Of a stretch of 64,000 bases of DNA, positions 18,997 through 44,330 are shown piece by piece (position 1 is the first letter of the stretch; each line of letters opens with the position of its first letter). Source of the DNA: Pseudomonadota bacterium (GTDB lineage: Bacteria; Pseudomonadota; Gammaproteobacteria; Burkholderiales; Rhodocyclaceae). The notes under the pieces were generated by a model that worked only from the letters and a program-made list of their open reading frames with translations, did not search any database and was not told where the DNA came from. Made by a program: the position numbers and the translations under genes. Location of the stretch: assembly GCA_018240785.1 (NCBI GenBank), contig JAFEFC010000029.1, positions 3,865 to 67,864 of the forward strand. Direction: 5' to 3'.

Positions 18997-19183
18997 GCCG
19001 GGCGGCGGGGCGGGTGACGCCAACTTCATGAGCGCCGAGGCGAAAGGCGGCGCGGGGGAAACAAGGCGACGCATGTCCGAGGCGCGCAGCGCCGAGTTTG
19101 CGTCGCCGCCCCCGCGCCGTCTTTCGCCGAGGGCAGCCGCAGGCCGCGAATGCAGGCGGCGCCACCCGCCCCGCCGCCCGGCC
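18997..19183. repeat. 187-bp compound imperfect palindrome (two nested stems)
   Basis: The outer arms GGCCGGGCGGCGGGGCGGGTG (18997-19017) and CACCCGCCCCGCCGCCCGGCC (19163-19183) are perfect 21-bp reverse complements. The inner arms (about 19034-19073 and 19099-19134) are complementary with indels, for example GAGGCGAAAGGCGGCGCGGGGG versus CCCCCGCGCCGTCTTTCGCCGAGG. Confidence 0.8.
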
Positions 19184-19280
19184 GGATCGAAGCCGCGCAA
19201 GAGCCCGAACACGCATCACAGCCACCCGTAGCCCCCCAAGCCCATCTGGCGCGCTTCGCCCACCACGCTCCCTTCTGCCG

Positions 19281-20183: not shown

Positions 20184-20332
20184 GTTCCGCACGCCCCCAC
20201 CCCCGATGGGATGAAATGCGCAAGAACGCCGCCGCGCAGGAGCGGGCTCGACCGCGACCCGCAGCGGCTCACTGCGCCCAGCTGGACTGACCGCGCGGGA
20301 GTCGCCCGTCGGGATCGTTCACGGTGACCAAA

Positions 20333-21984: not shown

Positions 21985-23226
21985 TCAGGGTGGCGCGAAG
22001 GCAGCGAACTCCGCCGGCAGCGGCGCGTTCTCCAGGCTGCGCTGGGAGAACAGGAAGCGGCCGTCACAGACGAAGCCGAGATCGGCCCAGTCGACCGCGT
22101 TGAGCGCGTCGCGGAAGGCGGCGAGCGCGATGTCGTCGCGATGCGGGAAGATGGCCATCACCGCGCCATCGTAGTCCTTGCAGGCGTGGATGAAGAAAGG
22201 GCGGGCGACGCGCGTCTTGCCGTTCACGTAGACCCGCGGTCGCTCGCTGCGGAAATGCATGCGCCCCCACATCCACCAGTTGGTTTCGTCGAAGCGGGTG
22301 ACCTTGCGCTGCAACAGCCGCGCCTTGTGCGGCAGCAGCGCAGGCGGCGGCAGGCTGCCGGGTTCGCTCCAGATCATGCGCCGTGTGCAGCCGGTGCCGA
22401 CGGTGGAGGAGCAGACGAAGTCGCGGTTGCCATGCTCCGCATCGGCGTACAGGTCGTCGGCGCCCGACACCGCGCCGACCTTGACGAAAGCGACGTCCGA
22501 CAGACGCAGCGGGTAGTCGCCGCGGGTGAACATCAGGTGGCCGGCACATTCGATGAAGTGGCGCGTCTCCCAGCGCGGCGCGCCCAGGCTGGCGGTGACG
22601 TCGTCGCCAGCGCCGATCTCCGCATGGCGCATCGTGCGCTCGAAGCGGCCTTTCTCGAAGCGCCAGATCAGGCAGTTGGGCACCGCGTCGGGAAACACCC
22701 GCGCGTCGCCGAGCTCGATGGCGTCGGTGATGGTGCCGGCCTCGAACAGCAGCCGGTTGAGCTTCACCGCCGACGTCGCCTTGAGGAAGTCGCGCGGCGT
22801 GATGAAGATCAGCTCGCCGCCGGGCTGCAGGTGGCGCACGCACTTCTCGATGAAGAACAGGTAGAGGTTGGCGCGGCCGTCGAGGTGGAAACGCTGCGGT
22901 GCACGCTCGATCAGGCCGCGCGTGGAGGCACCGATGTCCTGGAAACGCACGTAGGGCGGATTGCCGATGATGGTGTCGAAGCGCTCGCGCTCGGGATAGG
23001 CGAAGAAATCCATCGCCAGCGCACCCGGCGGACAGTGGTCGGCATCCAGCTCCAGGCCCACCGCGCCCGGGAGGTGGCGCAGGAAGGCGCCGTCGCCGCA
23101 CGAGGGCTCCAGCACGCGGCCACGGTTGCGCCGCAGCGCGAGCATGGCCCGCACGACGGGATCGGGAGTGAAGATCTGGCCGAGCACCGCGATGTCGCGC
23201 AAGCCCAGGGCGAGCTGCGCCGTCAT
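21985..23226 (-). CDS. N6-adenine DNA methyltransferase, gamma-class (TaqI/Eco57I-like), no cognate nuclease adjacent
   Basis: SAM motif I VLEPSCGDGAFL precedes catalytic motif IV IIGNPPYV (NPPY encoded at 22951-22962). A C-terminal half of about 200 aa is consistent with a fused target-recognition domain. Confidence 0.75.
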   Translation of the reverse strand: MTAQLALGLRDIAVLGQIFTPDPVVRAMLALRRNRGRVLEPSCGDGAFLRHLPGAVGLELDADHCPPGALAMDFFAYPERERFDTIIGNPPYVRFQDIGASTRGLIERAPQRFHLDGRANLYLFFIEKCVRHLQPGGELIFITPRDFLKATSAVKLNRLLFEAGTITDAIELGDARVFPDAVPNCLIWRFEKGRFERTMRHAEIGAGDDVTASLGAPRWETRHFIECAGHLMFTRGDYPLRLSDVAFVKVGAVSGADDLYADAEHGNRDFVCSSTVGTGCTRRMIWSEPGSLPPPALLPHKARLLQRKVTRFDETNWWMWGRMHFRSERPRVYVNGKTRVARPFFIHACKDYDGAVMAIFPHRDDIALAAFRDALNAVDWADLGFVCDGRFLFSQRSLENAPLPAEFAAFAPP

Positions 23227-23368: not shown

Positions 23369-24724
23369 TCAGCCCGCCCTGCTCTCTCGCTCGCGCCACC
23401 AGGCGATGAACTCGGCGAGGGGCATCGCGCGCCCATGCAGATAGCCCTGCGCGGAGGTGCAGCCCAGCTCGCCCAGCAGATCCATCACCTCATTCGTCTC
23501 CACCCCCTCGGCGACGATGCGCAGGCCCAGCGAGCGCGCGAGACTCGAGATGGAACGGATGATCTCGCGGTCGCGCGGCGAATCGGTGATCGGCGCCACG
23601 AAGCGGCGGTCGATCTTGACCTCGTGCACCGGCAAGCGTTGAAGGTAGGCCATGCCGGCATAGCCGGTGCCGAAGTCGTCGATGGCAAGGCGCACGCCGA
23701 GGCCGCGCAGGCGATGCAGCACGTCGGTGACCTCCTGCGACTCCTCGACCGCGACCGTCTCGGTGATCTCGACGCACAGCCGCTCCGGCGGCAGGTGCCA
23801 GAGGGTGAGCGCCTGTGCCACCAGGTCGGGCATCTCGGGATCGAGCAGATCGTGGGCGGTGATGTTGATCGACATGTCGACCGGCACGTGCGCGTCGCGC
23901 AATTGCGCCAGCGTCAGCGCCGCCGTCTGGAACAGCCAGCGGTTGAAGGCGTGGCGCAGGCCGGCGCGCTCGATCGTCGCCATGACGAGCGGCGGCTGTA
24001 CCCACTCGCCGTTGCGCCGCTGCCAGCGCAACAGGGCCTCGCCGTGCACGCAGCGACCGCTCGCGATCTCCACCTGCGGCTGGATGAACAGCGCCAGCGC
24101 GTTGTCGGCGAGGTCTTGCTGCAGTTCGGTGACCAGGTTCTGCTGCGCGGTGCTTTCCTGCTCCATTTCGGGGTCGTACAGCGCGACCCAGTCGCCGCGC
24201 TGCGATGCGGCCAGCGCCGCGATGCGCGCAGACTGCACCAGATGCAGCGGATCCTTGCCATGCTCGGGGCTGAGCGCCGAGCCGCACACCGCATTGAGTC
24301 CCATCTCGACACCGCCGATCGCGAGCGGCGGCTGGTAGAACACACGCCGGAACTTGAGCATGGCGAGATGAACCGGGGCGCTGCTGGGCAGGTTGGGCAA
24401 CACCAGCAGCCATTCCCACTCGCCCAGCACGTACAGCCGATCGGCCGGCCGCAAGGCGGCGCGCAGGCGGTCGGCGATGTGCATGCTCAGGCGCGCGACT
24501 GCCTCGGGCGCCAGCCGCAGCAAGGCCGGCTCGCGCACCACGCTGAACACGACCAGCCCCTGGCAGCTCGACGCGTCGGCATCGCCGGCGAGGCGTGTGA
24601 TGTCGGCCAGCGCCTGGCGCAGGCGCGGCAGCGAACCCGGCAGATCGACGTCGCCGGCAGGGGAACTAAACAAGATAGAACTCCGCCGGGTCGATGCCGT
24701 AGGCGTTGTCAGGCAGGGCGCCAA
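23369..24724 (-). CDS. EAL-domain c-di-GMP phosphodiesterase with degenerate GGDEF domain
   Basis: EAL signature residues are present: EALLRW, ..N.., EITE, DDFGTGYAG, KIDRRFV, EGVE, QGY. The N-terminal GGDEF-like domain has GEWEW in place of GGDEF (24410-24424). The start is uncertain: ATG 24724 overlaps the HD-GYP gene by 59 nt, and an in-frame TTG at 24673 is an alternative. Confidence 0.8.
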   Translation of the reverse strand: MAPCLTTPTASTRRSSILFSSPAGDVDLPGSLPRLRQALADITRLAGDADASSCQGLVVFSVVREPALLRLAPEAVARLSMHIADRLRAALRPADRLYVLGEWEWLLVLPNLPSSAPVHLAMLKFRRVFYQPPLAIGGVEMGLNAVCGSALSPEHGKDPLHLVQSARIAALAASQRGDWVALYDPEMEQESTAQQNLVTELQQDLADNALALFIQPQVEIASGRCVHGEALLRWQRRNGEWVQPPLVMATIERAGLRHAFNRWLFQTAALTLAQLRDAHVPVDMSINITAHDLLDPEMPDLVAQALTLWHLPPERLCVEITETVAVEESQEVTDVLHRLRGLGVRLAIDDFGTGYAGMAYLQRLPVHEVKIDRRFVAPITDSPRDREIIRSISSLARSLGLRIVAEGVETNEVMDLLGELGCTSAQGYLHGRAMPLAEFIAWWRERESRAG

Positions 24725-25958
24725 GGATGCGGTAAGACTCCCCGGTCGGTCCCAGCGGGTTGAGCATCAGATCCAGCGTGCGCGGGTAGCGCTCCACCGA
24801 CTTGTCCGGCGCCAGCAGCACCATGACCTTGGGCTGCAGGCGACGCACCTGGTTCTGCTGCAGCACCACCGCCACTTCGCCGGAGTTGAGTTCGACCAGG
24901 GTGCCGATGGGGTACAGGCCCATGCACTGCACGAACTGGTCGACCAGCGTGTCGCGAAACCTGCCGCCGCGCATGCGGACCAGTTCGGCGATTGCCTTCT
25001 GGCTGGACATGGGCTGGCTGTAGGAGCGCTCGCGGATCATCGCGCAGTAGGTGTCCATCAGGCCCGACATCTCGGCCAGCAGGCCAAGCTCCTGGCCCTG
25101 CAGCTTGAGCGGGTAGCCGCTGCCGTCGATGCGCTCGTGATGGCGGCCGATGATTTCCAGCGTGTCCGGTTGCAGGCCCGGCCGGTTGGCGACGATGCGC
25201 AGCGTGCTCACCACGTGATAGCGCGCCAGCTTGAGCTCTTCCGCAGTCAGGCGGCCAGGCTTGGTGAGGATTTCCTTGGGCAACTGGGTCTTGCCGAGGT
25301 CCTGGATCAGACCGGCTACGCCCACGCTCTCGATCTGCTCCCTGGGCAGGCCCAGGAAGCGCGCGAACACCATGAGGTGCACCGAGACGTCCAGTGCGTG
25401 GTCGTAGCTGTATTCGTCGGTGCTCTTCAGCCGTGTGAGCCACAGCAGTGCCTCCGGGTTGCGCACCACGCCAGCCGCAACTTCGGCGATGTTCTTCGAC
25501 ACATCCGCCAGATCGAGCGGCGTGTCCGCCTGCACGCAAGCAGTCAGCGAACGCAGGCTGGCCTGCACGTCGTCGATGACCGGTGCGGAATAGAGCAGCT
25601 CCTCCTCGAGCAGGCTGAGCGAGTCGCGGGCGCGCACGCGCGGCGTGCGCGCCCGCCGGGTCATGCCGCCGCGGCGCACCGCCTTGGCGATGCGGACGAA
25701 GTCGGGCTGCCGGGGCCGCGCGGGCGGCGGCAGGCCGACGAGAGGCGCATCCTTGCCATGCACCGTGGCGGCGAAGAACAGGCCGACGGACTTGCTCGGA
25801 TCGATCTCCACCGTGCGGCACAACAGTTGCAGATGGTCGATCTGCGACTGTTCCTCGATCAGGAATCCCTGCAGCAGGAAGGGCGTCTCCAGCCAGGGAC
25901 GATCGAGTTCGGCAACGAACATCCCCACCTTGAGATCGCGTGTCGACACAGACGTCAT
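24666..25958 (-). CDS. HD-GYP domain c-di-GMP phosphodiesterase (DUF3391 N-terminal domain)
   Basis: N-terminus LKVGMFVAELDRPWLETPFLLQGFLI (DUF3391-like). HD..HDLGK-type block (DHALDVSVH, IQDLGKTQLP). HHERIDGSGYP is the HD-GYP signature. Confidence 0.85.
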   Translation of the reverse strand: MTSVSTRDLKVGMFVAELDRPWLETPFLLQGFLIEEQSQIDHLQLLCRTVEIDPSKSVGLFFAATVHGKDAPLVGLPPPARPRQPDFVRIAKAVRRGGMTRRARTPRVRARDSLSLLEEELLYSAPVIDDVQASLRSLTACVQADTPLDLADVSKNIAEVAAGVVRNPEALLWLTRLKSTDEYSYDHALDVSVHLMVFARFLGLPREQIESVGVAGLIQDLGKTQLPKEILTKPGRLTAEELKLARYHVVSTLRIVANRPGLQPDTLEIIGRHHERIDGSGYPLKLQGQELGLLAEMSGLMDTYCAMIRERSYSQPMSSQKAIAELVRMRGGRFRDTLVDQFVQCMGLYPIGTLVELNSGEVAVVLQQNQVRRLQPKVMVLLAPDKSVERYPRTLDLMLNPLGPTGESYRILGALPDNAYGIDPAEFYLV

Positions 25959-26062
25959 AGACCTTGTGCTGCTCTCCGTTCCGGATTCCCTGTCTGCGAA
26001 TCATCGCACACGGTATTGTCGGCAGTATCGACCGATCCTGTAGGCTTGCTCAATCCGGATAA

Positions 26063-26197: not shown

Positions 26198-26992
26198 ATG
26201 GCCAAACGCGCCCTTTGCATCGGTATCAACAACTACCCCGGCACCGACAGCGACCTGTCCGGTTGCGTCAATGACGCCCTCGACTGGAGTGCGACCTTGC
26301 AGTCGCGAGGCTTCACCGTCACGACGCTGCTCGACGAAAAAGCCACGCGCAGCGCGATGGTAGATGCGATCGGCGGCCTGATCCGTGACGCACGCCCGGG
26401 CGACACCATCATATTTACCTATTCCGGGCATGGCACCTGGGTGGAAGACAAGAACGGCGACGAGCCCGACGGCCGCGATGAAGCCTTGTGCCCGCAAGAC
26501 ATCTCCACCGCCGGCCCGCTGCTCGACGACGACATCCGCGTCCTGTTCGACCAGCGTGGCGCAGGCGTGCGTCTGCTGCTGATCTCCGACAGTTGCCATT
26601 CCGGCTCGGTCACGCGCGGTGACGAGAGCGACCTCGATCCGGGCGGACCGCGCCCGCGCTACCTGCCGCCCGCCGCGTGGATGAAGCCGGGCACCGAACC
26701 CGCCGCGCCGCGCGCCAGCGCGATGAACCTGATCGGCGGCATGCGCCGCGCCGGCGGCGACCTGCTGCTGGCCGGCTGCCGCGACGACGAATACAGTTGG
26801 GACACCGGCTTCGGCGGCCGTCCCAACGGCGCCTTCACCTACTACGCGCTGAAGACGCTGAAGCAGGACAATCCCGAGACCTACGACGCCTGGCTTGCCG
26901 CCATCCGCCGCTACCTGCCGTCCACCCGGCTGCCGCAGGAGCCGCAGCTCTTCGGCACGCGCAGCGCGCGCCGCATGCGCGTTTTCGAGTAA
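26198..26992 (+). CDS. caspase family (peptidase C14, metacaspase/orthocaspase-like) protein, standalone
   Basis: 264 aa with no signal peptide. KRALCIGINNYPG..LSGCVNDA is a p20 N-terminus. Catalytic His in FTYSGHG (H78, nt 26429-26431). Catalytic Cys in LISDSCHSG (C133, nt 26594-26596). GGAG RBS before the ATG. Confidence 0.85.
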   Translation: MAKRALCIGINNYPGTDSDLSGCVNDALDWSATLQSRGFTVTTLLDEKATRSAMVDAIGGLIRDARPGDTIIFTYSGHGTWVEDKNGDEPDGRDEALCPQDISTAGPLLDDDIRVLFDQRGAGVRLLLISDSCHSGSVTRGDESDLDPGGPRPRYLPPAAWMKPGTEPAAPRASAMNLIGGMRRAGGDLLLAGCRDDEYSWDTGFGGRPNGAFTYYALKTLKQDNPETYDAWLAAIRRYLPSTRLPQEPQLFGTRSARRMRVFE

Positions 26993-27109
26993 GCCCGCGG
27001 GCCGTGTCCGCCCGGGCCGCGCGGCTGCGGCCGGGTGGCGCGCGCCCCGGCCCCCTGTCGTTCCCCACCCGCGGCCGCCCGGCCGCCATGTCACGCTCCG
27101 GAGCCCTCC

Positions 27110-30100
27110 ATGGCGCAGCGCAGCTTCACCCTACGCGGCACGACAGCTCAGACCGCGCCCCCGCCGGTGACGACCGGCGTCGTCGTTTCCAGCGTCCGGC
27201 GCCTGATCCCCGGGCGGGCGCGCGACGGCGTCGGCGGCGAGATGCAGGTCGGCGCCGACGAGGTGGTGCGTATCGAGCTCGAAAATGGCTTCGTGCTGTG
27301 GTCGCGCGCCGACAGCCTGGTGCGCGAGCATGGCCGCCTCTCGCTGTCGCGCGACGGTGGCGAGGCCTGGGAGTTCGACAGCCTGGTCGGCACGCCCGGC
27401 TCGCGCGGCGCCGGCGCGGCGCGTGACGAGCGCGGCCTGGTCGGTCTGGGTATACGGGTGCTGGATTTCTTCGGCATCGACCTCGCCAAGCACACCGCCG
27501 CCGAGCTGTCGACCTGGTTCGAGGACAAGCAGCTCCACCCGGACGGCCCCGGCCTGTACCGCTGCCCGCTGGACGATGGCTTCGCGCTGCACAAGCTCGG
27601 CGCGAACGAATCCGTGCCGCCCGGCGCACCCATGCTGCTGTTCCTGCACGGCACGGCCTCGAGCACCGAAGGCAGCTTCGGCAAGCTGTGGGATGCGGCC
27701 AACACGGCCGCCAGCGAGGTCCGGACGCGCCTGCGGCAGGTCTATGGCGAGAACGTCTACGCGCTGGAGCACCGCTCGCTCACCGAAAGCCCGATCCAGA
27801 ACGCGCTGGCGCTGGCCGAATCGCTCCCCAAGGGCGCGCAACTGCATCTCGTCAGCCATTCGCGCGGCGGACTGGTGGGCGAACTGCTGTGCCTGACCGG
27901 CAGCGCCCAGGCCACCGAGCTGCTGACGGCCGACACGCTGGAGGCGCTGTTCCGCACCGACCGCACGATCGCGCCGCAGCTCGGCCTGTTTCCGCTCGGC
28001 GCCGGCGAGAAGAAAGCGCGCGACGACGCCTATCGCCAGGACTGCGCGCGGCTCGCCAAGCTGCTGGAGACGCTGCGCAGCCGCAGCATCACGGTGCAGC
28101 GCTTCGTGCGCGTCGCCTGCCCGGCGCGCGGCACCACGCTGGCCTCCGGCCGGCTCGACCGCTGGCTGTCGGTGCTCGGCTTCGTCGCCGGCCACGCGGC
28201 GGGCGCCGACCTCTTCGCCGGCGGGCTGGATTTCCTGCTCGCGGTGGTCAAGGAGCGCACCGACCCGCGCACCCTGCCCGGCCTCGAGGCGATGATGCCA
28301 GGCTCGGCGCTGACCCGCCTGCTGCAACACCCGGACCTCCTCACCACCGCCGACCTCAGCGTGATCGCCGGCGACATCGAGGGCGATTCGCTGTGGCAGA
28401 AGATCAAGCTGGTGGCGGCGGACTGGTTCTATGGCGCCGACCACGACCTGGTGGTGAACACCGGCTCGATGTCCGGCGGGCTGCGGCGCCCGCCCAGCGG
28501 CGCGCGCTTCCGCCAGGACAAGGGCGCGGACGTCAATCACTTCAGCTACTTCCGCAATGCCCGCAGCCTGCAGTGGCTGCAGGCCGGGCTGTTGCGGGCG
28601 GAAGGCGATGCCGGCGGCTTCCTGCCGATCGAGGCCGCGCCCAGCGCGCCGCCGCGCTGGCGCGAGGCGGTGCAGCGCAGCCGCGCCGACGACACGCCGC
28701 GGCCGCTGGCGATCGTACTGCCGGGCACGATGGGCAGCGCTCTGTCGGTGCGCGGCGATCGCGTCTGGCTCAATTACTGGGCGCTGCTGCGCGGTGGCCT
28801 GAAGCGCATCTCCAGCACCGCCAGCGACGTCGCGCCGGTCGATCTGCTCGACGATTTCTATGGCCCCCTGCTCGAGTTCCTGTCGCAAACCCACCGGGTG
28901 GAGGTCTTCCCCTACGACTGGCGCATGTCGGTGACCGAGGCCGCGACGAAGCTCGCGCAGCGCCTCGCCGACTGGCTGCCGCTGGCCGAGCGCCAGGGCC
29001 AGCCGGTGCATGTCGTCGCGCACTCGATGGGCGGCCTGGTGGTGCGCGCGATGATCGCCGACGGCGGGCCGGGCAAGGCGCTGTGGGAGCGCATCCGGCG
29101 CCTGCCCAACAGCCGCTTCCTGATGCTAGGCACGCCCAATTTGGGCTCGCACGAGGCGGTGCGCTGGCTCACCGGCTTCAACCCGACCGAAGCCAAGCTC
29201 GCGCTGCTCGATTTCACCCAGGGCACCGACGACATCATCGGCATCGTGCGCGACTACCCCGGTCTGCTGGAGCTGCTGCCCTTCGCCGACGCGGCGCTTC
29301 CCTTCGCCAAGCAGGATGTCTGGAAGCGGATCTGCAGCGAAACCCGCGCCGCATGGAAGATCGCGACTGCGCCCCGCCTGAGCGACGCGGCACGCACCTG
29401 GACGCGCCTGCGCGCGGCCGCGCCCGACCCGCTGATGCGCTACGTCGCCGGCTGCCAGCCCGCCACCGTGATCGACTACCGCCTGGTGGAGGACGAGACC
29501 CTGGGCCGCCAGGGCAGCAGGCGCATCGAATTCCTCGCCACGCGCGAGGGCGATGGCACGGTGAGCTGGGCCTCCGGTCGCCTGCCCGGGGTCGACACCT
29601 GGTATGTGGAAGACACCGCGCACGATGCGCTGTGCACGCAGCGGCGCGCCTTCGCCGCCTACCTGGAGCTGCTGCAGACCGGCACGACGAAGCGCCTGCC
29701 GGCCGCGCCGCCGGCGCGCGCCCGCGGCGCGGAGGGCGAGGCGCCGGTGTTCGTGCTGCCCGCCAGCCCGCCCGCCGACGGCATCCCCGGCGAGGGCCAG
29801 GTGTCCCGCCTGGGCTTTGGCGGCGAGCTGCCGGAAGAGGACGACGCGCGCGCGCCGGTGCCGACGATCTCGGTGAGCATCCGCCATGGCGATCTGTCCT
29901 ACGCACGCCATCCGGTGGTGGTCGGCCACTATCTCGGCGACACCATCGTCAGCGCGGAAAAGATGCTGGACCACCGCCTGGGCAACGCGCTGTCGCGCCG
30001 CCACTTCCTCGGCCTCTATCCCGGCCGCCTGCACACCCATGCGCTGTTCTTCCACCCGCGCAAGGAAGGCAAGCCCGGCGGCGCCATCGTCATCGGCCTG

Positions 30101-32620
30101 GGCCAGGTCGGCGAGCTGACGCCGGGCCTGCTGGAGGCAGCGACACGCTCGGCCCTGCTCGACTACGCGCTGCAGGTGGCGCAATGGGCGGACGACCGCT
30201 TCGGCCCCGCCGGCAGCCCGCGCCGCGCCTCCGTCACCTGCCTGCTGGTGGGGACCGGCGCCGGCGGCATGCCGGTGCGCGACTCCATCGAGGCGATGCT
30301 GCGCGGCGCGGTCGCCGCCAACGCGCGGCTGGTCGAAGCCGAGCTGGACGGCCAGGTGACGATCGCCGAGATCGAGTTCCTCGAGCTGTACGAGGACGTG
30401 GCGATCAATGCCGCCGCCGGCCTGGCGCAGATCCTCACCAGCGGCGAGCTTGCGGCGACGGTGAGCTGGCCCGCACGCCAGGTCGAGCCCGGCGTGGGCG
30501 GCCACCGCCGGGTGCGCTTCGAGGACGCGCCCGAGTGGTGGCACCGCCTCGAGATCGCCGAAGACGAAAACCGCGCCGATGTGCTGCGCTTCGTGTTCGC
30601 CACCGACCGCGCGCGCGCCGAGGAGACCTTGTCCACCGGCCAGCTCGCGCTGGCGGACGCGTTCATCCGCAGCGCCTCGCGCTCGGCCCGGGCCAACCCT
30701 GAAGCCGCGCGCACCCTGTTCGAGATGCTGCTGCCGCTGCGCCTGCGCGAGATGGCGCCGCGCCAGAGCGACCTGGTGCTACTGGTCGATGAGCGCTCGG
30801 CGCGCTATCCCTGGGAGCTGCTCGAAGACCGCTGGAGCGCCAACGGCCGGCCGCCAGCGGTGGCCTGCGGCCTGGTGCGGCAGCTCAAGTCGCAGACCTT
30901 CCGCGCGCGCCCGGCGCATGCCTTCGAGGCGCGCGCACTGGTGATCGGCCATCCCGACCTGCAGGGCTGGGACAAGTTCAGCGACCTGCCGGGGGCGCGC
31001 GAGGAAGCGCGCCGCGTGGCCGACCTGCTGGCTGGCAGCGAATTCCGCGTGACCGACAGCATCGACGAAGGCACCGACGCCATCATCGAGAACCTGCACC
31101 GCGACGCCTGGCGCATCCTGCACCTGGCCGGCCATGGCGCGCACGAGTACGAGCTTGCGCAGCCGCCGGCGGTTGCCGGCGCGCTGCAAGCCGCAACGGC
31201 TTGCCAGCCTGCGGTGCGCAAGGTCTCCGGCATGGTGATCGGCAAGGAGGTGTTCCTGACCCCGGGCGACATCGAGCAGATGCGCTGGGTGCCCGAGCTG
31301 GTGTTCATCAACTGCTGCCACCTGGGCAAGACGCTGTCGACCGAACCGTCCGACCGCGGCGCGCTGGCCGCCAACCTGGGCGTGCAGTTCATCCGCATGG
31401 GCGTGCGCGCGGTGGTCGCCGCCGGCTGGGCGGTGGACGACGGCGCGGCGCTGACCTTCGCCGAAGCCTTCTACGCCCGCATGCTGGCCGGCGAGGCCTT
31501 CGGCGACGCGGTCCGTGCCGCGCGCGAGGAAGCCTGGCGGCGCCATCCGGGCGTCAATACCTGGGGCGCCTACCAGTGCTACGGCGACCCGGCCTTCCGC
31601 CTGCGGCGCGATGCCGGCTCGCGGCCGCGCCCGCGCACGCCGTATGCGGCAGTCTCGGAACTGGTCGCCGACCTCGACAACCTCGCCTGCAGCCTGCACG
31701 CCAGCGGCACGGACGATGACGCGGCGGCCGCGATCGACGCACGGCTGGCACGCATTCCCGATGGCCAGCACGACAACTGGCTGAAGCTCGGGGAAGTGCG
31801 CGCGGCGCTCGGCTTTGCCTGGGGCGAAGCGCGGCGCTGGGACGAAGCCATCGACTGGCTGGGCCAGGCGCTGGACGCCGACAAGGGCAGCTGCCCGCTG
31901 CGCGCCGCCGAGCAACGCGCAAACTACATCGTGCGCCGCGCCGCCGACGCCTGGCAGGCGGCCGAGGCCGGCACGACGCTGGCCGCCGAAGACCGGACGC
32001 GGCTGCTGCAGGCGGTGCACGACGCGATCGACGACCTCGATCGCCTCGCGCGCAACGGCGAAACCGAGGAAAGGCTGAGCCTGCTGGGCAGCGCCTGCAA
32101 GCGCCAGGCCCTGATCGAGGATGACGCGGCGCGGCGGGCCGATGCCTTGCGGCGCATGGCGGATTACTACCAGCGCGCGTTCAAGCGCAGCGACTGCTCG
32201 AAAGCCTACGCCTTCACGAACTGGGCCACCGCGGCAGTGCTGGCGGGCCTGCCGCAGGACGAGGCAGCGCGCACCCAATGGCAGACGCAGTTCCAGCAGG
32301 ACGCCGAACGCCTGTCTGCGCTGACGCAGCACAGCAATGATGCCGATCCCAGCTTCTGGGACGCTGCCGCCCTCGGCGACATCGCCCTGGCGCGCCTGCT
32401 CGCCCGTTTTGGTCCGGACACCGCGGCATTGCTGCCGGCGGAGGCCGAAGCGCTGGCGGACATGGTGATCGCGCGTTATCGGGATGCGATCGAGCGCGGC
32501 GCCAGTCCGCGCGAGCGCAGTTCGGTGGTCGAGAACCTCGATTTCATCCTCGCGCTGGCAGGTGCCGCCACAGGCGCGCTGGGCACCACGCTGCAGCGCA
32601 TCCGCGCCACGCTGCCCTGA
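27110..32620 (+). CDS. 1,836-aa multidomain protein: unknown N-domain + alpha/beta-hydrolase 1 + LCAT/lipase-like alpha/beta-hydrolase 2 + unknown alpha/beta domain + CHAT protease + helical (TPR-like) C-terminus
   Basis: Start at ATG 27110 (GGAG seven nt upstream); the ORF-track start is 27035. Hydrolase 1 has [10 protein letters not shown] and the nucleophile elbow VSHSRGG (Ser codon 27860-27862), then DHDLVVN and VNHFSYF. Hydrolase 2 has [15 protein letters not shown] (Ser codon 29024-29026), REGDGTVS and [11 protein letters not shown] has ILHLAGHG (His codon 31133-31135) and [10 protein letters not shown] (Cys codons 31313-31318), ending in GAYQCYGDP. The final 320 aa or so are Ala/Leu/Asp/Arg-rich and helical. 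Confidence 0.8.
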
Positions 32621-32649: not shown

Positions 32650-32702
32650 GGGAGCGGACCTGGGCGCGATCCCGATCAAGGATCGTGCCCAGGTCCGCTC
32701 CC
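32650..32702 (+). terminator. 22-bp-stem hairpin 30 nt after the giant gene stop (no U-tract)
   Basis: GGGAGCGGACCTGGGCGCGATC, loop ccgatcaag, then GATCGTGCCCAGGTCCGCTCCC, with one mismatch. It is not followed by a T run, so it may be a factor-dependent terminator or a structural element. Confidence 0.5.
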
Positions 32703-32861
32703 GCATGGCATCCCCCGGTTGCGCATTCCTCGCGGCGCGGCGGCGCGGCCGGGTTGATGCGCCGGGTTGATGCGTTTTGCGGCCGCCCGCCGCACAGGTA
32801 GACTAGGGCGTTGTCGCCCGCGGGCCGCAGTGCCCGATTCATTCCCCAAAAGGAGTTCCCC

Positions 32862-33833
32862 ATGCCCTTCGCCAAGCCCTGCACCACGCTGCTGAGCGCC
32901 CTGATCCTGTCTTTCGCGATCGCCGCCCCGGCGCTCGCGCAACAGAAGTCCGTCGCGGTGACGGCGATCGTCGAGCATCCGGCGCTCGACTCGGTGCGCG
33001 ACGGGGTCAAGGAAGGCCTCGCCGCGGCGGGCTTCGAGGAAGGCAAGAACCTGAAGTGGCAGTACCAGAGCGCGCAAGGCAACACCGGCACGGCCGCCCA
33101 GATCGCGCGCAAGTTCGTCGGCGACAGGCCCGACGTGATCGTCGCCATCGCCACGCCTTCGGCCCAGGCCGTCGCCGCAGCGACCAAGGAAATCCCGCTG
33201 GTGTATTCGGCGGTGACCGACCCGATGGCCGCGCAACTGGTGCCGTCGATGGCGGCTTCGGGCAACAACGTCACCGGCGTGTCCGACGTGCTCGAACTCG
33301 ACAAGCAGATCGCGCTGATGAAGCAGATCGTGCCGACGGCCAAGCGCGTGGGCGTGGTGTACAACCCGGGCGAAGCGAATTCGGTGGTGGTGGTGAAGGC
33401 GCTGCGCGAGGCGCTGCCCAAGCAGGGCATGACCCTGGTCGAAGCCGCCGCGCCGCGCACGGTGGATGTGGGCTCCGCGGCGCGCAGCCTGATCGGCAAG
33501 GTGGACCTCTTCTACACCAGCACCGACAACAACGTGGTGTCGGCCTATGAATCGCTGGTGAAGGTCGGCAACGACGCCAAGATCCCGATGATCGCCGCCG
33601 ACACCGACAGCGTGAAGCGCGGCGCCATCGCGGCGCTGGGCATCGACTACCGCAACCTCGGCCGCCAGACCGGCGCCATGGTCGCGCGCATCCTGAAGGG
33701 CGAGAAGCCGGGCACGATCGCCTCGGAGACCAGTTCCAAGCTCGAGCTGTTCGTGAATCCGGGCGCGGCCGAGAAGCAGGGTGTCAAGCTGTCCGAGTCC
33801 GTGCTGAAGTCGGCGGCACAGATCGTCAAGTAA
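32862..33833 (+). CDS. ABC transporter substrate-binding protein (COG2984 / ABC_sub_bind family)
   Basis: AAAGGAG RBS. Signal peptide MPFAKPCTTLLSALILSFAIAAPALA. VAVTAIVEHPALDSVRDGVKEGL..VIVAIATPSAQA is typical of this family. Confidence 0.8.
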   Translation: MPFAKPCTTLLSALILSFAIAAPALAQQKSVAVTAIVEHPALDSVRDGVKEGLAAAGFEEGKNLKWQYQSAQGNTGTAAQIARKFVGDRPDVIVAIATPSAQAVAAATKEIPLVYSAVTDPMAAQLVPSMAASGNNVTGVSDVLELDKQIALMKQIVPTAKRVGVVYNPGEANSVVVVKALREALPKQGMTLVEAAAPRTVDVGSAARSLIGKVDLFYTSTDNNVVSAYESLVKVGNDAKIPMIAADTDSVKRGAIAALGIDYRNLGRQTGAMVARILKGEKPGTIASETSSKLELFVNPGAAEKQGVKLSESVLKSAAQIVK

Positions 33834-33909
33834 TCGCAGCGAACGATCCGCGGCCGGCGATGGCGCCGGCCGCGGCCGCCTGCCTCCAGACCCTCATCGG
33901 TAATCCTCC

Positions 33910-34800
33910 ATGTCGCTCTATACCCTGCTCGGGGCATTCGAGATCGGGCTGATCTTCAGCCTCGTCGCGCTGGGCGTGTACATCTCGTTCCGGCTGCTGC
34001 GCTTTCCCGACCTCACCGTGGATGGCAGCTTCCCGCTCGGCGGCGCGGTTGCCGCCACGATGATTTCCAGCGGCTCCGACCCCTTCCTCGCCACCATCGT
34101 GGCGACCATCGCCGGCGCGGTGGCCGGCCTGATCACCGGCTGGCTCAACATCCGGCTGAAGATCATGGATCTGCTCGCGAGCATCCTGATGATGATCGCG
34201 CTGTACTCGATCAACCTGCGCATCATGGGCAAGCCCAACGTGCCGCTGATCACCGAGCCCACCGTGTTCTCGGTGCTGCAGCCCGATTCGATCTCCGACT
34301 ACGTGCTGCGCCCGCTGCTGCTGGTCGTGGTCGTGCTGGCGGCGAAATTCCTGCTCGACTGGTTCTTCTCGACGCAGACCGGCCTGGCGATGCGCGCCAC
34401 CGGCTCCAACGCGCGCATGGCCCGCGCGCAGGGCGTAAACACCGGCCTCATGGTGCTGGGCGGCATGGCGCTGTCGAACGCGCTCGTGGGCATGGCCGGC
34501 GCTCTGTTCGCGCAGACCCAGGGCGGCGCCGACATCTCGATGGGCGTGGGCACCATCGTCATCGGCCTCGCTGCGGTGATCGTCGGCGAAAGCCTGCTGC
34601 CGTCGCGCCGGCTCTACCTGGCGACGATCGCGGTGGTGGTCGGCGCCATCGTCTATCGCTTCTTCATCGCGCTGGCACTCAACAGCGATTTCATCGGCCT
34701 GCAGGCGCAGGATCTGAACCTGGTCACCGCGTTGCTGGTCACCGTGGCGCTGGTGGTGCCCAAGCTGCGCCAGCACTGGTCGGGCAAGAAGGGGAACTGA
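33910..34800 (+). CDS. ABC transporter permease (COG4120)
   Basis: 296 aa, multi-TM. GLIFSLVALGVYISFRLLRFPDLTVDGSFPLGGA is characteristic of the partner permease. Confidence 0.8.
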   Translation: MSLYTLLGAFEIGLIFSLVALGVYISFRLLRFPDLTVDGSFPLGGAVAATMISSGSDPFLATIVATIAGAVAGLITGWLNIRLKIMDLLASILMMIALYSINLRIMGKPNVPLITEPTVFSVLQPDSISDYVLRPLLLVVVVLAAKFLLDWFFSTQTGLAMRATGSNARMARAQGVNTGLMVLGGMALSNALVGMAGALFAQTQGGADISMGVGTIVIGLAAVIVGESLLPSRRLYLATIAVVVGAIVYRFFIALALNSDFIGLQAQDLNLVTALLVTVALVVPKLRQHWSGKKGN

Positions 34801-34801
34801 A

Positions 34802-35596
34802 ATGTTGAGAGCACAGGATCTGCACATCACGTTCAACCCCGGCACGCCGATCGAGACGCGGGCACTTCGCGGCATGTCGCTCGACATCCCGTCGGGTCAG
34901 TTCGTCACCGTGATCGGCTCCAACGGCGCCGGCAAGTCCACCTTCCTCAACGCCGTCTCCGGCGAGCTCAAGGTCGACAGCGGCCGCATCGAGATCGACG
35001 GCATCGACATGACGCGCCAGCCGGTATGGGAGCGCGCCCGCCACGTCGCGCGCGTGTTCCAGGACCCGATGGCCGGCACCTGCGAGGACCTCACCATCGA
35101 GGAGAACATGGCGCTCGCCGAGATGCGCGGCCACAAGCGCGGCCTGGGCTGGGCAGTGAAGCCGGCGCTGCGCGACGAGTTCCGCGCGCAACTGGCGACG
35201 CTGGGCCTCGGCCTGGAGAACCGCCTGTCCGACCGCATCGGTCTGCTGTCGGGGGGCCAGCGCCAGGCGGTGAGCCTGCTGATGGCGGCGCTGCGCCCGT
35301 CGCGCCTGCTGCTGCTCGACGAGCACACCGCGGCGCTCGACCCGCGCACCGCCGATTTCGTGCTGCAACTGACGGTGCGCATCGTCGCCGAGCACAAGCT
35401 CACGACGATGATGGTGACCCACAGCATGCGCCAGGCGCTGGACGTGGGCGAGCGCACCGTGATGCTGCACCAGGGCAAGGTGGTGCTCGACGTGTCCGGC
35501 GACGAGCGCAAGGGCATGACGGTGAAGGACCTGCTGGCGATGTTCGAGCGCGTGCGCGGCGAACAGATCGACGACGACGCCCTGCTGCTGGGCTGA
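34802..35596 (+). CDS. ABC transporter ATP-binding protein (COG1101)
   Basis: Walker A GSNGAGKST; signature LSGGQRQAVSLLMA; Walker B LLLLDEHTAALD. Confidence 0.85.
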   Translation: MLRAQDLHITFNPGTPIETRALRGMSLDIPSGQFVTVIGSNGAGKSTFLNAVSGELKVDSGRIEIDGIDMTRQPVWERARHVARVFQDPMAGTCEDLTIEENMALAEMRGHKRGLGWAVKPALRDEFRAQLATLGLGLENRLSDRIGLLSGGQRQAVSLLMAALRPSRLLLLDEHTAALDPRTADFVLQLTVRIVAEHKLTTMMVTHSMRQALDVGERTVMLHQGKVVLDVSGDERKGMTVKDLLAMFERVRGEQIDDDALLLG

Positions 35597-35603
35597 GCGC
35601 AGG

Positions 35604-36623
35604 TCAGCGCGGCAACTGGCGCGCGACGAAGGCCCACGCCATCTTCGAGGCGTCCGGGCCGTGCGCATCGCTGAACGGCTGGCGCGCATCGCCGCCACTC
35701 CAGGCATGGCCCAGGCCTTCGACCAGGCACAGGCTGGCGATGGTCCTTCGCTTCAGCTTGAAGTCGGTCACGGTTGCCGGATGGCGCTTGCCGCGCTGCA
35801 AGGCACGCGGTTCGGCGGCGACCGCGCCAGCCGCCGCCGCCCACGACTGCACGGCGGCAATGCCGTTGCCCGGCGCAACGACCGGATCGCGGTCGCCCTG
35901 GATGACGAGCAGCGGCGGCAGGGGCTGCGACGTCACGGGCAGCGCGGGGTCGCGTCGCCCGCCCATCGCCGCCAGCGCCGATGCGGCCGAATGTGCGGCC
36001 CCCGGCGCCACGCCCGAGTGCATCACCACCGCGCGGAAGCGCGCGGGATGCAGGCTGGCGAGCAGCGCCGCCATGCCCGCCCCGGCCGACAGCCCGGCCA
36101 CGGCGATCGCCGCCGGGTCCACCGGATACAGCAGGCAGACCTGGTCGATCGCCGCCATCAGGGTCGCCGCCTCGGCCTGTGCCTGGCGCGTGACGGTGCC
36201 GTACCAGTCCCAGCAACCCTGCGGATTCACGCGTCGGTCCTGCTCCGGATACAGCACCAGGAAGCGCTCGCGCACCGCCAGCCGGTTCATGCGCGTGCTG
36301 CGCGCGAAGCTCGCCGCGCTCTGGCCGCAGCCGTGCAGCATCACCATCAGCGGCAGGCGGTCGGCGTTCGTCACGCCCGGCGGACGGAACAGGAAGAAGC
36401 GGCGCATGCCGCCGGCGCCGATGGCCTGGCCGCTGATCCAGTCGCCCGGGCCGGGCGGCGGCCGCAGTTGCTCCGCGGCCGCGTCCACCGCCCGCTTCGC
36501 CAGCGTGCCGGCCATGCGGCTGCCGCTGCGCAAGGTGGCGCGCGTCATCGCCGTCACCGCGCGCTGCAGCGACTTGCCCAGCGCGGATCCGGCCAGCGGC
36601 GAGCGGCGCAGGCGCTTGCTCAC
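35604..36623 (-). CDS. PHB depolymerase family esterase (LpqC-like alpha/beta hydrolase)
   Basis: LPLMVMLHGCGQSAASF..CWDWY..AVAGLSAGAGMAA (GLSAG nucleophile elbow) ..VMHSG. The start overlaps the stop of the upstream peptidase gene by 4 nt. Confidence 0.75.
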   Translation of the reverse strand: MSKRLRRSPLAGSALGKSLQRAVTAMTRATLRSGSRMAGTLAKRAVDAAAEQLRPPPGPGDWISGQAIGAGGMRRFFLFRPPGVTNADRLPLMVMLHGCGQSAASFARSTRMNRLAVRERFLVLYPEQDRRVNPQGCWDWYGTVTRQAQAEAATLMAAIDQVCLLYPVDPAAIAVAGLSAGAGMAALLASLHPARFRAVVMHSGVAPGAAHSAASALAAMGGRRDPALPVTSQPLPPLLVIQGDRDPVVAPGNGIAAVQSWAAAAGAVAAEPRALQRGKRHPATVTDFKLKRRTIASLCLVEGLGHAWSGGDARQPFSDAHGPDASKMAWAFVARQLPR

Positions 36624-37642
36624 GGGCTGGCCGGTGGCGGCGCCGCGGTCGGTCGGCGGCGCTGACGCTTGCGGGCGGCGGAAGCGGCGTCGTCGATGCG
36701 GCGCAGCGTGGCGCGCGCGCTGTCGGCGATCGCACCCTCCGTGCCGGCGCGCTCGACCGCCTTCACTGCCGCGGCGCGCGCCTCCGCACGGCGGCCCAGC
36801 TCGAGCAGCACAGTCGCAAGATTGTTGTAGGCCGCAGCGGCGTCATGCCGCTGCGCGGCAGCGGCGAAGGCGCGGCGCGCACCGTCGAGGTCGCCGGCGG
36901 CGTAGCTGGCGTTGCCCAGCCCCATCGCCAGCGTCAGGCTGCCCGGCCAACGCGCCAGCCCTGCGGCGTAGGCCTGCGCCGCCTGGCGTGGCAGCGCGGT
37001 GCGCTCGAAGGCAACCAGGGCACGGGTGGCCTCCGCTTCGTCGGCGGTCGCCGGCAGCCTGTCAGGCGGCAGCGCGACGAAGGCCCAGCGCTGCGCCCGG
37101 TCCCAGGTGTGCTCGAAGGTCGACAACGGCAGTTCCTGGCGCTCGATCGGACCGGAGCGCAGCAGGAAATCACCCGCGTCGAGGTCGTAGCCGATCACCA
37201 GCGCGTAATGCCAGGACGGCGCCCACGACAGCCCCAGGTTCTGCAGCACCACCACCGGGTTGCCCGCGGCGGTCTCGCGCATCACCGCCTCCAGCGTGCC
37301 GGGAATCACCGTCGCCACCGCGCCCGAACGGCGCGCGCCGGCGAGCATCTCGATCTGCAGCGAGCCCTCGCGACCGGGCAGGAAGACCTTGCCGGTGAGG
37401 GCCTCCGGCCGCGTCGGCAGGCCCACCGCGCTGAGCGCGGAGGCAAGCGCCGCCGGGCCGCACTGGTACTCCTCCTGCGGGAAGAAGGGCGTGGCGCTCA
37501 GCTCCACCCGTCGCGGCAGTCCGTCCGGCGGCGCAGCGAGCAGTCGCGGCGTCTGCACCGCGCAGCCAGCCAGCAGCCATGCCGCAGCCGCCGCCCCGCC
37601 CAGAAGGAAACGCCGCCTTGCGGCGGCGCTGCACCCCGGCAT
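36620..37642 (-). CDS. PA2778 family cysteine peptidase (C39-like) lipoprotein with TPR C-terminus
   Basis: Lipobox LLAGC. PFFPQEEYQCGPAALASAL carries the papain-like catalytic Cys context, with WHYALVIGYD as the His block. C-terminal TPR-like repeats (YNNLATVLLELGRRAEA). Confidence 0.7.
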   Translation of the reverse strand: MPGCSAAARRRFLLGGAAAAAWLLAGCAVQTPRLLAAPPDGLPRRVELSATPFFPQEEYQCGPAALASALSAVGLPTRPEALTGKVFLPGREGSLQIEMLAGARRSGAVATVIPGTLEAVMRETAAGNPVVVLQNLGLSWAPSWHYALVIGYDLDAGDFLLRSGPIERQELPLSTFEHTWDRAQRWAFVALPPDRLPATADEAEATRALVAFERTALPRQAAQAYAAGLARWPGSLTLAMGLGNASYAAGDLDGARRAFAAAAQRHDAAAAYNNLATVLLELGRRAEARAAAVKAVERAGTEGAIADSARATLRRIDDAASAARKRQRRRPTAAPPPASP

Positions 37643-38245: not shown

Positions 38246-38530
38246 CTACTTCGTCGATTGCTCGCCCTCCTCACGCGCCACCGCGGACAGGTCGCGCAGG
38301 TACCAGGCGGCATAGGCGAAACCCGCCACCGCGACGAGCGCAGTGAACATCAGCGTGCGGTCGAAAGGAAGCCCGGCAGCAAGATTGACGACGACGACGT
38401 AGCCGAGATAGCAGCCGGCGAACAGGCCGCCGATGATGCGGATGAGCGCGAAAGTCTTGCGCTGCTTGAGGGTAGGCTGGGGCACGTGGAACTCCTGGTC
38501 GATGATCAGCGAAAGCCGGCCCGCGCGCAC
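38246..38530 (-). CDS. hypothetical small membrane protein (2 predicted TM helices)
   Basis: Two hydrophobic stretches, FALIRIIGGLFAGCYLGYVVVVNLAAGL and LMFTALVAVAGFAYAAWYL. The ATG overlaps the recD 3' end by 25 nt. I recognised no family. Confidence 0.4.
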   Translation of the reverse strand: MRAGRLSLIIDQEFHVPQPTLKQRKTFALIRIIGGLFAGCYLGYVVVVNLAAGLPFDRTLMFTALVAVAGFAYAAWYLRDLSAVAREEGEQSTK

Positions 38531-44210: not shown

Positions 44211-44258
44211 CGCCGGGATGGTAGCGAGGGCGCAGTGCGGTCGCAAACCGGCCGTGCC

Positions 44259-44293: not shown

Positions 44294-44330
44294 GCATGCG
44301 CGCGAACCGCACGCGCAGGAGGTGTCAGGC

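Follow-up and report, generated by a model that had tools for sequence, protein, structure and literature searches.

The subject of this analysis is a pair of adjacent genes in a stretch of 64,000 nucleotides (the window in what follows) from contig JAFEFC010000029.1 of a bacterium of the Rhodocyclaceae (assembly GCA_018240785.1). The first gene, open reading frame (ORF) A at 26198..26992 on the plus strand, encodes a metacaspase-like C14 protease of 264 aa. It starts with ATG and is preceded by AGGAG 8 nt upstream. It is followed by a GC-rich spacer of 117 nt (26993..27109, plus strand), in which a GGAG precedes the ATG of ORF B by about 10 nt, and by ORF B itself (27110..32620, plus strand), a giant of 1,836 aa. 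The open frame of ORF B starts further upstream, at a GTG at 27035. Since the methionine encoded at 27110 is invariant and aligned with residue 1 of 13 relatives (alignment A1), we take the protein to comprise 1,836 aa and the intergenic gap to be 117 nt. This agrees with the same-strand spacing given in the original prediction, which had been made from the letters of the window alone, and with a direct reading of the sequence. No signal peptide was seen by eye on either protein. We find that the two genes form a real and conserved module of the conflict or cell-death kind, with close mechanistic precedents in cascades from a sensor-CHAT protein to a caspase and in Thoeris-like signalling.

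ORF A matches the Pfam family Peptidase_C14 (PF00656) with E = 2e-28 and 100 bits against a cutoff of 21.4, the domain covering residues 3-253. By Pfam it is a bare catalytic domain without a sensor domain of its own. His78 lies in the motif YSGHG and Cys133 in DSCHSG, and both motifs align residue by residue to the yeast metacaspase Yca1; in the structure of the Yca1 C276A mutant (4f6p), the alanine is aligned exactly at Cys133. Both residues are invariant in 12 ORF A orthologues, and so is an acidic stretch, DxDGDExDGxDE, which is aligned with a matching acidic stretch of Yca1. A variable linker holds the motif PRPRF[LM]P, conserved in the same orthologues. Sequence matches in the PDB are led by Geobacter GSU0716 (3bij, E = 3e-31), followed by the metacaspases Yca1, MCA2 and AtMC4/9. 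The predicted compact standalone caspase with an intact His/Cys dyad is thus confirmed by the Pfam profile, the Yca1 alignment and the invariance among orthologues. Searches with PADLOC and NCBIfam led to no named system; they matched a 'caspase' model of a generic kind and, below threshold, a caspase of EACC1 type. By analogy, ORF A would cleave proteins specifically after Arg or Lys, and would itself be a zymogen that is activated by cleavage.

ORF B, also on the plus strand throughout, is built of six domains in a fixed order. An N-terminal domain (residues 1-170, 27110..27619), beta-rich in the AlphaFold model and without a Pfam match, precedes a first alpha/beta-hydrolase (Lip1; residues 176-520, 27635..28669) and a second one of LCAT/lysosomal-PLA2-like type (Lip2; residues 530-870, 28697..29719). 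A linker with a conserved Pro/Arg motif (residues 871-914, 29720..29851) leads from this lipase module to the regulatory module, which consists of a macro-like domain with a Peptidase_M17_N/macro fold (residues 915-1125, 29852..30484), a CHAT protease domain (residues 1195-1495, 30692..31594) and a TPR-S domain (residues 1510-1836, 31637..32617). Four of these domains lie above the Pfam thresholds: DUF7379 (Lip1, E = 1.7e-33), LCAT (Lip2, E = 1.8e-7, LCAT/PGAP1/DUF676-like), CHAT (PF12770, E = 2e-28, 100 bits against a cutoff of 24) and TPR-S (PF20308, E = 3.4e-13, 50.5 bits against a cutoff of 27.6). Comparison with the PDB by sequence, both with the single sequence and with a 72-sequence profile, returned nothing useful, and NCBIfam gave nothing meaningful. 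ORF B was modelled by AlphaFold as two halves, using 72-sequence alignments of proteins from the homology search. The model of residues 1-900 reaches a predicted local distance difference test (pLDDT) score of 81.7 and a predicted template modelling (pTM) score of 0.71, that of residues 900-1836 a pLDDT of 85.9 and a pTM of 0.79. Pfam profiles, together with Foldseek searches on these confident models, uphold the domain calls made earlier.

Each hydrolase carries a candidate catalytic triad that is invariant in the ORF B relatives, namely Ser251 (HSRGG), Asp446 and His477 in Lip1, and Ser639 (AHSMGG), Asp815 (GDGTV) and His838 in Lip2. The nucleophiles that had been proposed as Ser276 and Ser664 are the same two serines, counted from the GTG start. 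With the N-terminal half as query, Foldseek retrieved lysosomal phospholipase A2 (LPLA2; 4x92, E = 2e-11), LCAT and the type VI secretion system (T6SS) lipase Tle4 (4r1d, E = 4e-8), and it also found Pseudomonas and Burkholderia lipases and PlaB. By Pfam profile, motif and modelled fold, both domains are alpha/beta-hydrolase lipases with candidate triads, and the phospholipase folds among the matches are in good agreement with the dual-lipase claim.

The linker motif, RLPxxPPxRxRA...LPxxPPxDxIP, is conserved in an alignment of 77 orthologues. The model of the N-terminal half is less confident at the end that reaches into the linker (pLDDT 63-65 over residues 871-900). Judged from its sequence, the segment 871-914 is a candidate for docking or cleavage. 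A specific association of the Arg motif with caspase-bearing loci was considered and rejected, the motif being found in both sets of loci. Conservation of the domains was measured as mean pairwise identity over 76 ORF B orthologues and amounts to 0.39 for TPR-S, 0.43 for the N-terminal domain and 0.54-0.62 for the enzymatic domains. TPR-S and the N-terminal domain evolve fastest, which fits recognition surfaces.

Residues 915-1125 or so adopt a macro-like fold in the model, with the conserved motifs GHYxGDxIVSAE and LLVGTGAGG. Foldseek aligns the domain with macroH2A1.1 (1zr3, target-based TM-score (TMt) 0.68), TTHA0132 (2dx6, TMt 0.74) and a T. cruzi macrodomain (5fsz), and also with the macro-like N-terminal domains of leucyl aminopeptidases (LAP). 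Among orthologous segments, 36 of 50 are matched by Pfam Peptidase_M17_N, with a best E of 3.5e-6. A profile of the segment weakly aligns GDxIVsAe and LvGTGaGG with GDAIVNAAN and LlGTGvGGL of the macro protein 2dx6. In macro domains, these two motifs are the adenine-contacting and the diphosphate-binding one. We therefore regard the domain as a candidate sensor of an ADP-ribose-type ligand. The original prediction had listed it as an unassigned alpha/beta domain; the alpha/beta call was right, and an assignment as macro-like is now given by Foldseek and the motifs.

In the CHAT domain, His1342 (LAGHG) and Cys1402/1403 (NCCHLG) are invariant in the ORF B relatives. The top Foldseek match of the entire C-terminal half is the activated SAVED-CHAT filament 8tl0 (E = 2.6e-5), so that the Pfam profile, the invariant residues and a match to a caspase-like fold agree on the CHAT domain with a His/Cys dyad that had been proposed. 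No SAVED domain was found in ORF B by Pfam or PADLOC. The TPR-S ('Tetratricopeptide Repeats-Sensor') region of about 330 aa is all-helical in the model, and Foldseek matches it to TPR proteins. It is the most variable domain of ORF B, yet it keeps a conserved set of charged and aromatic residues. The earlier description of a helical C-terminus of about 320 aa was correct as to the fold and had missed the sensor meaning that the Pfam family adds.

The search for relatives covered one genome per species and found an ORF B relative in 570 species-representative genomes; analyses of loci use the best 80 of them (L001-L080), all from Beta- and Gammaproteobacteria. The closest relative, in Thauera sp. 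2A1, shows 95% identity, which makes a Thauera the very probable source of the window. Full-length relatives with the same Pfam set form more than 120 clusters at 90% identity, with 54-95% identity to ORF B, and the order of the six domains is the same in every full-length relative found, including those of the best 80 loci. A search of 1.84 billion representative sequences with the TPR-S region gave 824 matches at E <= 1e-3; all full-length proteins among the best 150 matches have the six-part architecture. Of 59 shorter relatives that were scanned, 58 carry both CHAT and TPR-S, and in all proteins in which the two domains were mapped, TPR-S is on the C-terminal side of CHAT. The shorter relatives mostly start in the middle of a domain, which marks them as fragments of the giant. 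A fusion of this TPR-S subfamily to other effector types, which had been considered, was rejected on the same count. Truly shorter forms could be represented by a handful of proteins with lengths near 900 aa (macro-CHAT-TPR-S) or 1,280 aa (Lip2-macro-CHAT-TPR-S). No homologue of ORF B was found in phage genomes by tblastn.

For the pairing of both genes, the flanking ORFs of the 80 loci were clustered and hidden Markov models (HMMs) were built for recurrent families; the 72 loci in which 1 kb or more is available upstream are informative. An ORF A orthologue (HMM E < 1e-100) lies directly upstream of the giant in 32 of these 72 loci, always on the same strand and with a gap of 14-600 bp, and the flanks beyond the pair are unrelated between loci. 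The paired loci span several orders of Beta- and Gammaproteobacteria, and an example from Desulfobulbus adds to them. In the reciprocal direction, the caspase family comprises more than 120 clusters of proteins of about 263 aa with at least 64% identity, and all six further members that were looked up, among them those of Desulfobulbus propionicus and Aromatoleum toluclasticum, have the giant downstream, sometimes with one small ORF in between and irrespective of the genes on their flanks. Pairwise identities of caspases and giants co-vary (r = 0.70; 0 of 2000 permutations in a Mantel test), a correlation to which the shared species phylogeny contributes. The adjacency in homologs, which had been set beforehand as a test, is thus not coincidental, and the pair is a genuine two-gene module as proposed. 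The pairing is asymmetric. Mapped onto a neighbour-joining tree built from the giants, the caspase has a patchy distribution and is absent from the most divergent clade, and in some Thauera loci a different small gene fills its upstream slot. About 55% of loci have a giant but no caspase, and every caspase sampled had a giant. This makes the caspase look like an accessory part that acts downstream, and not like an obligate activator of the giant.

One locus from a gammaproteobacterial metagenome-assembled genome (L030:9196-9564) has a truncated or split caspase, seen as two tblastn pieces, and an M15 peptidase gene that is present twice or split; decay of accessory genes or an assembly error may account for both.

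One or more of six recurrent partners are present in 57 of the 61 loci whose flanks extend for 3 kb or more on either side. Over the related loci as a whole, the commonest is a LAS-type cell-wall peptidase of the family Peptidase_M15_3 (35 loci; Pfam E = 2.8e-10), encoded about 70 bp downstream of the giant; it ranks above the caspase orthologue (32 loci) and is absent from the window. The others are a weakly SLOG-like protein of about 190 aa (24 loci; best E = 8e-4), a membrane protein of about 520 aa with no Pfam match (17 loci), TIR_2 proteins (11 loci; Pfam E = 2.5e-12, PADLOC ThsB E = 3e-8) and a protein that combines a TIR-like domain with TPR-S (10 loci; Pfam TPR-S E = 1e-10). The last one matches the PADLOC 'TIR effector' of the cyclic-oligonucleotide-based antiphage signalling system (CBASS) with E = 6e-7, and its TPR profile matches the regulatory region of ASK1/MAP3K5 (8qgy, 5ulm). 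TIR genes stand near ORF B relatives in 11 of 79 loci, and also in L081. Loci that lack the caspase carry others of these partners, and the partners occur in more than one arrangement. One of them reads caspase, giant, M15 peptidase and membrane protein, with the TIR-like/TPR-S/SLOG-like protein as an optional first gene; another reads TIR, giant, M15 peptidase and SLOG-like protein. In loci of the Desulfobulbus propionicus type (L081 and L082), the caspase is followed by an unannotated 448-aa gene, the giant, a TIR_2 gene and a 715-aa TPR_10/TPR_12 protein. Judged from sequence, such mixing and matching of TIR, TPR-S, weakly SLOG-like, peptidase and membrane genes is a signature of nucleotide-signalling conflict systems, and the conflict or cell-death context that had been predicted is borne out by these neighbours.

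Some of the partners deserve a remark of their own. An assignment of the protein of about 190 aa to the SLOG domains is doubtful: YAcAr was matched in 4 of 12 members, and no PDB sequence match was found. A partner of about 650 aa (in L024, L029, L060, L013 and others) joins a TIR-like N-terminal domain, TPR-S and the weakly SLOG-like domain of about 190 aa in one protein. The 715-aa TPR protein of L081 and L082 weakly matches the PADLOC candidate PDC-M28B.

The closest precedent is the SAVED-CHAT/PCaspase system of Haliangium ochraceum, a hybrid of type III-B CRISPR (clustered regularly interspaced short palindromic repeats) and CBASS (Steens et al., 10.1101/2023.06.23.546230; PDB 8tl0). There, binding of cyclic triadenylate (cA3) to SAVED leads to filaments with active CHAT, which specifically cleaves a standalone C14 protease, PCaspase, with the dyad H79/C146; PCaspase then degrades many proteins, and abortive infection needs both proteases (10.1101/2023.06.23.546230). 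The cluster was found in H. ochraceum and six further genomes (10.1101/2023.06.23.546230). Our locus shares with it the fusion of a sensor to CHAT and the separate compact C14 gene in one cluster; H78/C133 of ORF A compare with H79/C146 of PCaspase, and 8tl0 is the top structural match named above. The differences are equally clear. The sensors of ORF B are a C-terminal TPR-S and a macro-like domain instead of an N-terminal SAVED domain, two phospholipase domains and an N-terminal domain are added in the same polypeptide, no Cas10 or CD-NTase gene lies nearby, and genes for a sigma factor, a kinase or an inhibitor are missing. The ORF B family, moreover, matched 570 species-representative genomes as compared with seven. 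In Craspase, i.e., type III-E gRAMP with the TPR-CHAT protein Csx29, a TPR-fused CHAT cleaves a partner protein specifically and thereby activates it. Csx29 carries its TPR N-terminal to CHAT and is activated by RNA-guided Cas7-11, whereas TPR-S is C-terminal in ORF B and the window holds no CRISPR.

A second group of precedents is found in Thoeris. In type IV Thoeris, a TIR product, N7-cyclic ADP-ribose (N7-cADPR), activates the Arg-specific, promiscuous caspase-like effector ThsE (Rousset et al., 10.1101/2024.10.24.620036). Our system resembles it in having a caspase-family protease, here as the proposed death effector, and in the TIR genes near some ORF B relatives. ThsE, however, has its own C-terminal sensor and a directly paired TIR gene, whereas ORF A is bare, the window is without TIR, and the CHAT giant stands between any signal and the caspase. 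Elsewhere in Thoeris, the macro domain of type II senses His-ADPR (a histidine-linked ADP-ribose), and the TPR of the type VIII effector ThsI is a proposed cADPR sensor (10.64898/2025.12.03.692087). By its description, ThsI is similar to the partner in related loci that has a hydrolase/TIR-like domain and TPR. Unlike these effectors, ORF B joins both putative kinds of sensor with a protease and lipases, and its macro-like domain is nearer to the LAP N-terminal type. The Pfam families of ORF B are not listed in the text supplementary files of the systematic Thoeris study (10.64898/2025.12.03.692087).

With regard to the lipases, Kaur et al. (2020, PMC7159879) noted for other predicted conflict systems that a caspase-superfamily domain is invariably accompanied by a gene for an alpha/beta-hydrolase. 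The vWA-MoxR (VMAP) and GAP1 conflict systems of that study share the combination of caspase and alpha/beta-hydrolase with our locus. They centre on NTPases (MoxR, STAND, GTPase) and vWA, which are absent here, where the hydrolases are fused to CHAT instead. Hydrolysis of phospholipids as the killing output, which we propose, is known from CapV of CBASS; CapV is of patatin type and activated directly by a cyclic nucleotide, unlike the alpha/beta-hydrolases of ORF B that reside inside a protease-bearing giant. The original prediction knew of no described system with this architecture. The exact architecture was indeed in no paper that we found, and PADLOC and NCBIfam assign neither protein to an already named system; SAVED-CHAT/PCaspase and the caspase-hydrolase pairing of PMC7159879 are close precedents that had gone unnamed. 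In the searchable literature, we found no paper on DUF7379, no relevant one on 'TPR-S', and none that combines CHAT with macro, Thoeris and phospholipase. TPR-S reportedly goes back to Burroughs et al. (2015, Nucleic Acids Research), who may already have predicted part of this gene neighbourhood.

From these data, we propose that the pair acts as a cytoplasmic, signal-gated self-destruction module of abortive-infection type with ORF B as its core, a reading to which we give about an even chance. A trigger would be sensed by the macro-like and/or the C-terminal TPR-S domain of ORF B. The likeliest one is a small molecule derived from ADP-ribose or NAD, of the type made by TIR enzymes, the alternative being a viral or stress-derived ligand; the giant would either sense it directly or make use of a TIR enzyme encoded elsewhere in the genome. 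Binding of the ligand would switch on the CHAT protease, which would cut the ORF A zymogen and turn it into a promiscuous executioner specific for Arg and Lys. CHAT would probably also lift an autoinhibition of the two phospholipase domains of ORF B, so that membrane lipids are degraded and the cell dies or is arrested before the invader can spread. What the data show is the identity of the domains, their fixed order, the intact catalytic residues, the conserved pairing and the conflict-type partners in relatives; the nature of the trigger, the direction from CHAT to the caspase, the release of the lipases and the immune role are what we infer. The proposal is favoured by the invariance, among relatives, of all three catalytic centres in ORF B and of the ORF A dyad. 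The asymmetry of the pairing, the missing sensor of ORF A and the higher evolutionary rate of the TPR-S and N-terminal domains fit a caspase that stands downstream of the giant. The original prediction had suggested a proteolytic cascade with lipases; the module and its conflict context stand, and the role of the caspase as an obligate activator does not, with more than half of the loci having a giant and no caspase.

A bolder version, which we consider clearly less probable and put forward tentatively, takes ORF B as a self-contained 'death machine': a cascade from initiator to executioner that would be independent of CRISPR and CBASS, linked to TIR and ADP-ribose, and widespread in Proteobacteria. 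Here the macro-like and TPR-S domains would be the sensors and CHAT the initiator that sets off two arms together: an activated metacaspase that would degrade the proteome, and the two phospholipases, joined in many relatives by the cell-wall M15 peptidase, that would break down the envelope.

Several observations weigh against the proposal of a signal-gated immune module. The immune role is deduced from genomic context, and the cut sites, PRPRF[LM]P in ORF A and the Pro/Arg linker between Lip2 and the macro-like domain, are candidates from sequence; the linker motif is equally present in loci with and without the caspase. The macro-like domain is by sequence nearer to the LAP N-terminal domain than to canonical macro domains, and the copy in the window matches no Pfam family, Macro included, so that binding of an ADP-ribose-type ligand stays putative. 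No PADLOC model matches ORF B. No TIR gene was detected by a TIR HMM in the window, none of the five other recurrent partner families was found by HMM anywhere in it, and a signal generator, be it a TIR enzyme, a cyclase, CRISPR or another one, is missing there. The immediate neighbours are EAL, ABC-transporter and rec genes, and the window is no defence island. In 46 related loci, 116 ORFs within 5 kb of the giant gave only scattered PADLOC matches (a type I specificity subunit, type II methylases, MADS components and a weak AriA), so that the signal for a siting in defence islands is weak. Finally, many hosts are environmental bacteria that form flocs or aggregates, and a non-viral trigger is therefore possible.

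This last point leads to a serious rival, which we judge unlikely but would rank next: the pair could be a device for regulated autolysis or programmed death, or for membrane remodelling, that answers endogenous stress or population signals and is not directed against phages. Non-viral programmed lysis in aggregate formers would suit the hosts, which are largely floc, biofilm or symbiont Proteobacteria, the housekeeping genes that flank the pair and differ per locus, the weak signal for defence islands, and the frequent partnership with a cell-wall M15 peptidase and a membrane protein. On the other hand, the TIR, TPR-S and weakly SLOG-like partners are typical of nucleotide-signalling immunity, the patchy mix of partners across the tree is typical of conflict systems, and a plasmid-borne paralogue in Azotobacter lies beside type I restriction-modification, Fic genes and insertion sequence (IS) elements. 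A reversal of the cascade, in which the metacaspase cleaves ORF B, e.g., in the Arg linker that joins the lipases to the macro-like domain, and so frees the lipase module, appears improbable to us. It is known that relatives of metacaspases cut after Arg or Lys, the type IV Thoeris caspase and PCaspase are Arg-specific, and the Lip2-macro linker, into which the less confident end of the N-terminal half-model reaches, carries the conserved PPxRxR motif. The roughly 55% of ORF B orthologues without a caspase nevertheless keep the linker motif and all catalytic residues, so the caspase cannot be an obligate activator; ORF A, as a bare catalytic domain, has no sensor of its own, and in the sole characterised pair of CHAT and C14 it is CHAT that acts on the caspase.

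Two further explanations are far less probable. ORF B might be a lipase that is exported as a toxin against other bacteria, in the manner of the T6SS Tle effectors, with the caspase as a processing or immunity factor. Its lipase region does resemble Tle4 (4r1d, E = 4e-8) and secreted bacterial lipases, but the best structural matches are the eukaryotic LPLA2 and LCAT, no signal peptide is visible by eye, Pfam finds no PAAR, VgrG or Rhs marker, and neither a gene for an immunity-like lipoprotein nor vgrG/PAAR is among the conserved neighbours. Moreover, the domains fused to the lipases (macro-like, CHAT and TPR-S) belong to cytoplasmic signalling, as do the TIR partners, and we consider export very improbable. 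That ORF A and ORF B adjoin by coincidence could be argued from the half or so of ORF B orthologues that have no caspase neighbour; it is effectively refuted by the comparative data, i.e., 32 loci of the same order and strand with short gaps, spread over several orders and Desulfobulbus with unrelated flanks, the six out of six reciprocal cases and the correlated divergence of both proteins.

Proteolytic cascades of caspase type have long been considered eukaryotic, and to our knowledge a single bacterial cascade from CHAT to a caspase has been dissected so far. If the proposed signal-gated module is true, the logic of CHAT and caspase would exist in a much commoner form, given the 570 species-representative genomes with a match to ORF B. 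It would be coupled to another kind of sensing, where the macro-like and TPR-S domains point to ADP-ribose/TIR signalling, and to another kill mechanism, in which phospholipases and protease are parts of one protein. The pairing of caspase and alpha/beta-hydrolase genes that recurs in earlier comparative genomics may also find its explanation here. The compact two-gene unit lends itself to tests with concrete point mutants and ligands.

As to the hosts, many of those in L001-L080 are floc formers of activated sludge, phototrophic aggregate formers or symbionts, such as Thauera, Accumulibacter, Competibacter, Dechloromonas, Lamprocystis and Thiodiazotropha. This range may stem from biased sampling or point to an association with social life. 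Distant paralogues of ORF B with 33% identity from the N-terminus through CHAT are located on plasmids of Azotobacter, Paracoccus and Ensifer. One of them (L089), a Lip-Lip-macro-CHAT paralogue of about 34% identity, is carried by the mobilizable 76-kb plasmid NZ_CP066312.1 of Azotobacter chroococcum and adjoins a type I restriction-modification system, two Fic genes, a recombinase and three IS elements. A. chroococcum also has a chromosomal orthologue with the caspase (L005).

In the window itself, the minimal pair of ORF A and ORF B is all that is present of the module, and the base composition is unremarkable. No CRISPR array was found in the 64 kb, as had been stated, no Cas10 or CD-NTase gene is among the neighbours (EAL, methylase-like, ABC-transporter and rec genes), and no gasdermin gene adjoins the pair, which lies between the ORFs of the EAL region and the gene for an ABC substrate-binding protein; nor are there gasdermins among the partners that recur in relatives. 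Directly upstream of ORF A, on the minus strand, lies an ORF without a Pfam match (24709-26004), preceded by a gene for an EAL phosphodiesterase (23369-24724, minus strand). Of the c-di-GMP phosphodiesterases that the original prediction had placed here in the plural, only this one is confirmed, and the ABC transporter it had named is found downstream of ORF B (32811-35596), with its substrate-binding protein next to the pair. Further genes on the minus strand encode a Peptidase_C39-like protein with TPR (36620-37642), a recD-type protein (38506-40422; AAA_19/AAA_30/UvrD_C_2/RecD_N) and a recB-type protein (40419-44312; UvrD-helicase/PDDEXK). The recD- and recB-type genes beside the C39-like/TPR protein make the chromosomal context a housekeeping one. 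On the other side, 3 kb upstream of the pair, an ORF of 413 aa (21985-23226, minus strand) carries Eco57I and N6_Mtase domains; no restriction partner was identified nearby, and it may be an orphan or remnant methylase. A long ORF at 19026-20192 on the minus strand has no Pfam match.

The strong hairpin that was predicted to close the pair is present at 32650..32702 on the plus strand, 30 nt past the stop codon of ORF B. It has a perfect stem of 23 bp and no U-tract, and the 100-nt stretch around it folds with -67.6 kcal/mol (z = -7.6). A related half-copy of the palindrome, with 2 mismatches in 23, is located about 23 kb away at 55768-55790. Because the U-tract is missing and a related half-copy occurs elsewhere, a dedicated terminator is doubtful, and the hairpin may as well be a dispersed palindrome of the REP (repetitive extragenic palindromic) kind.

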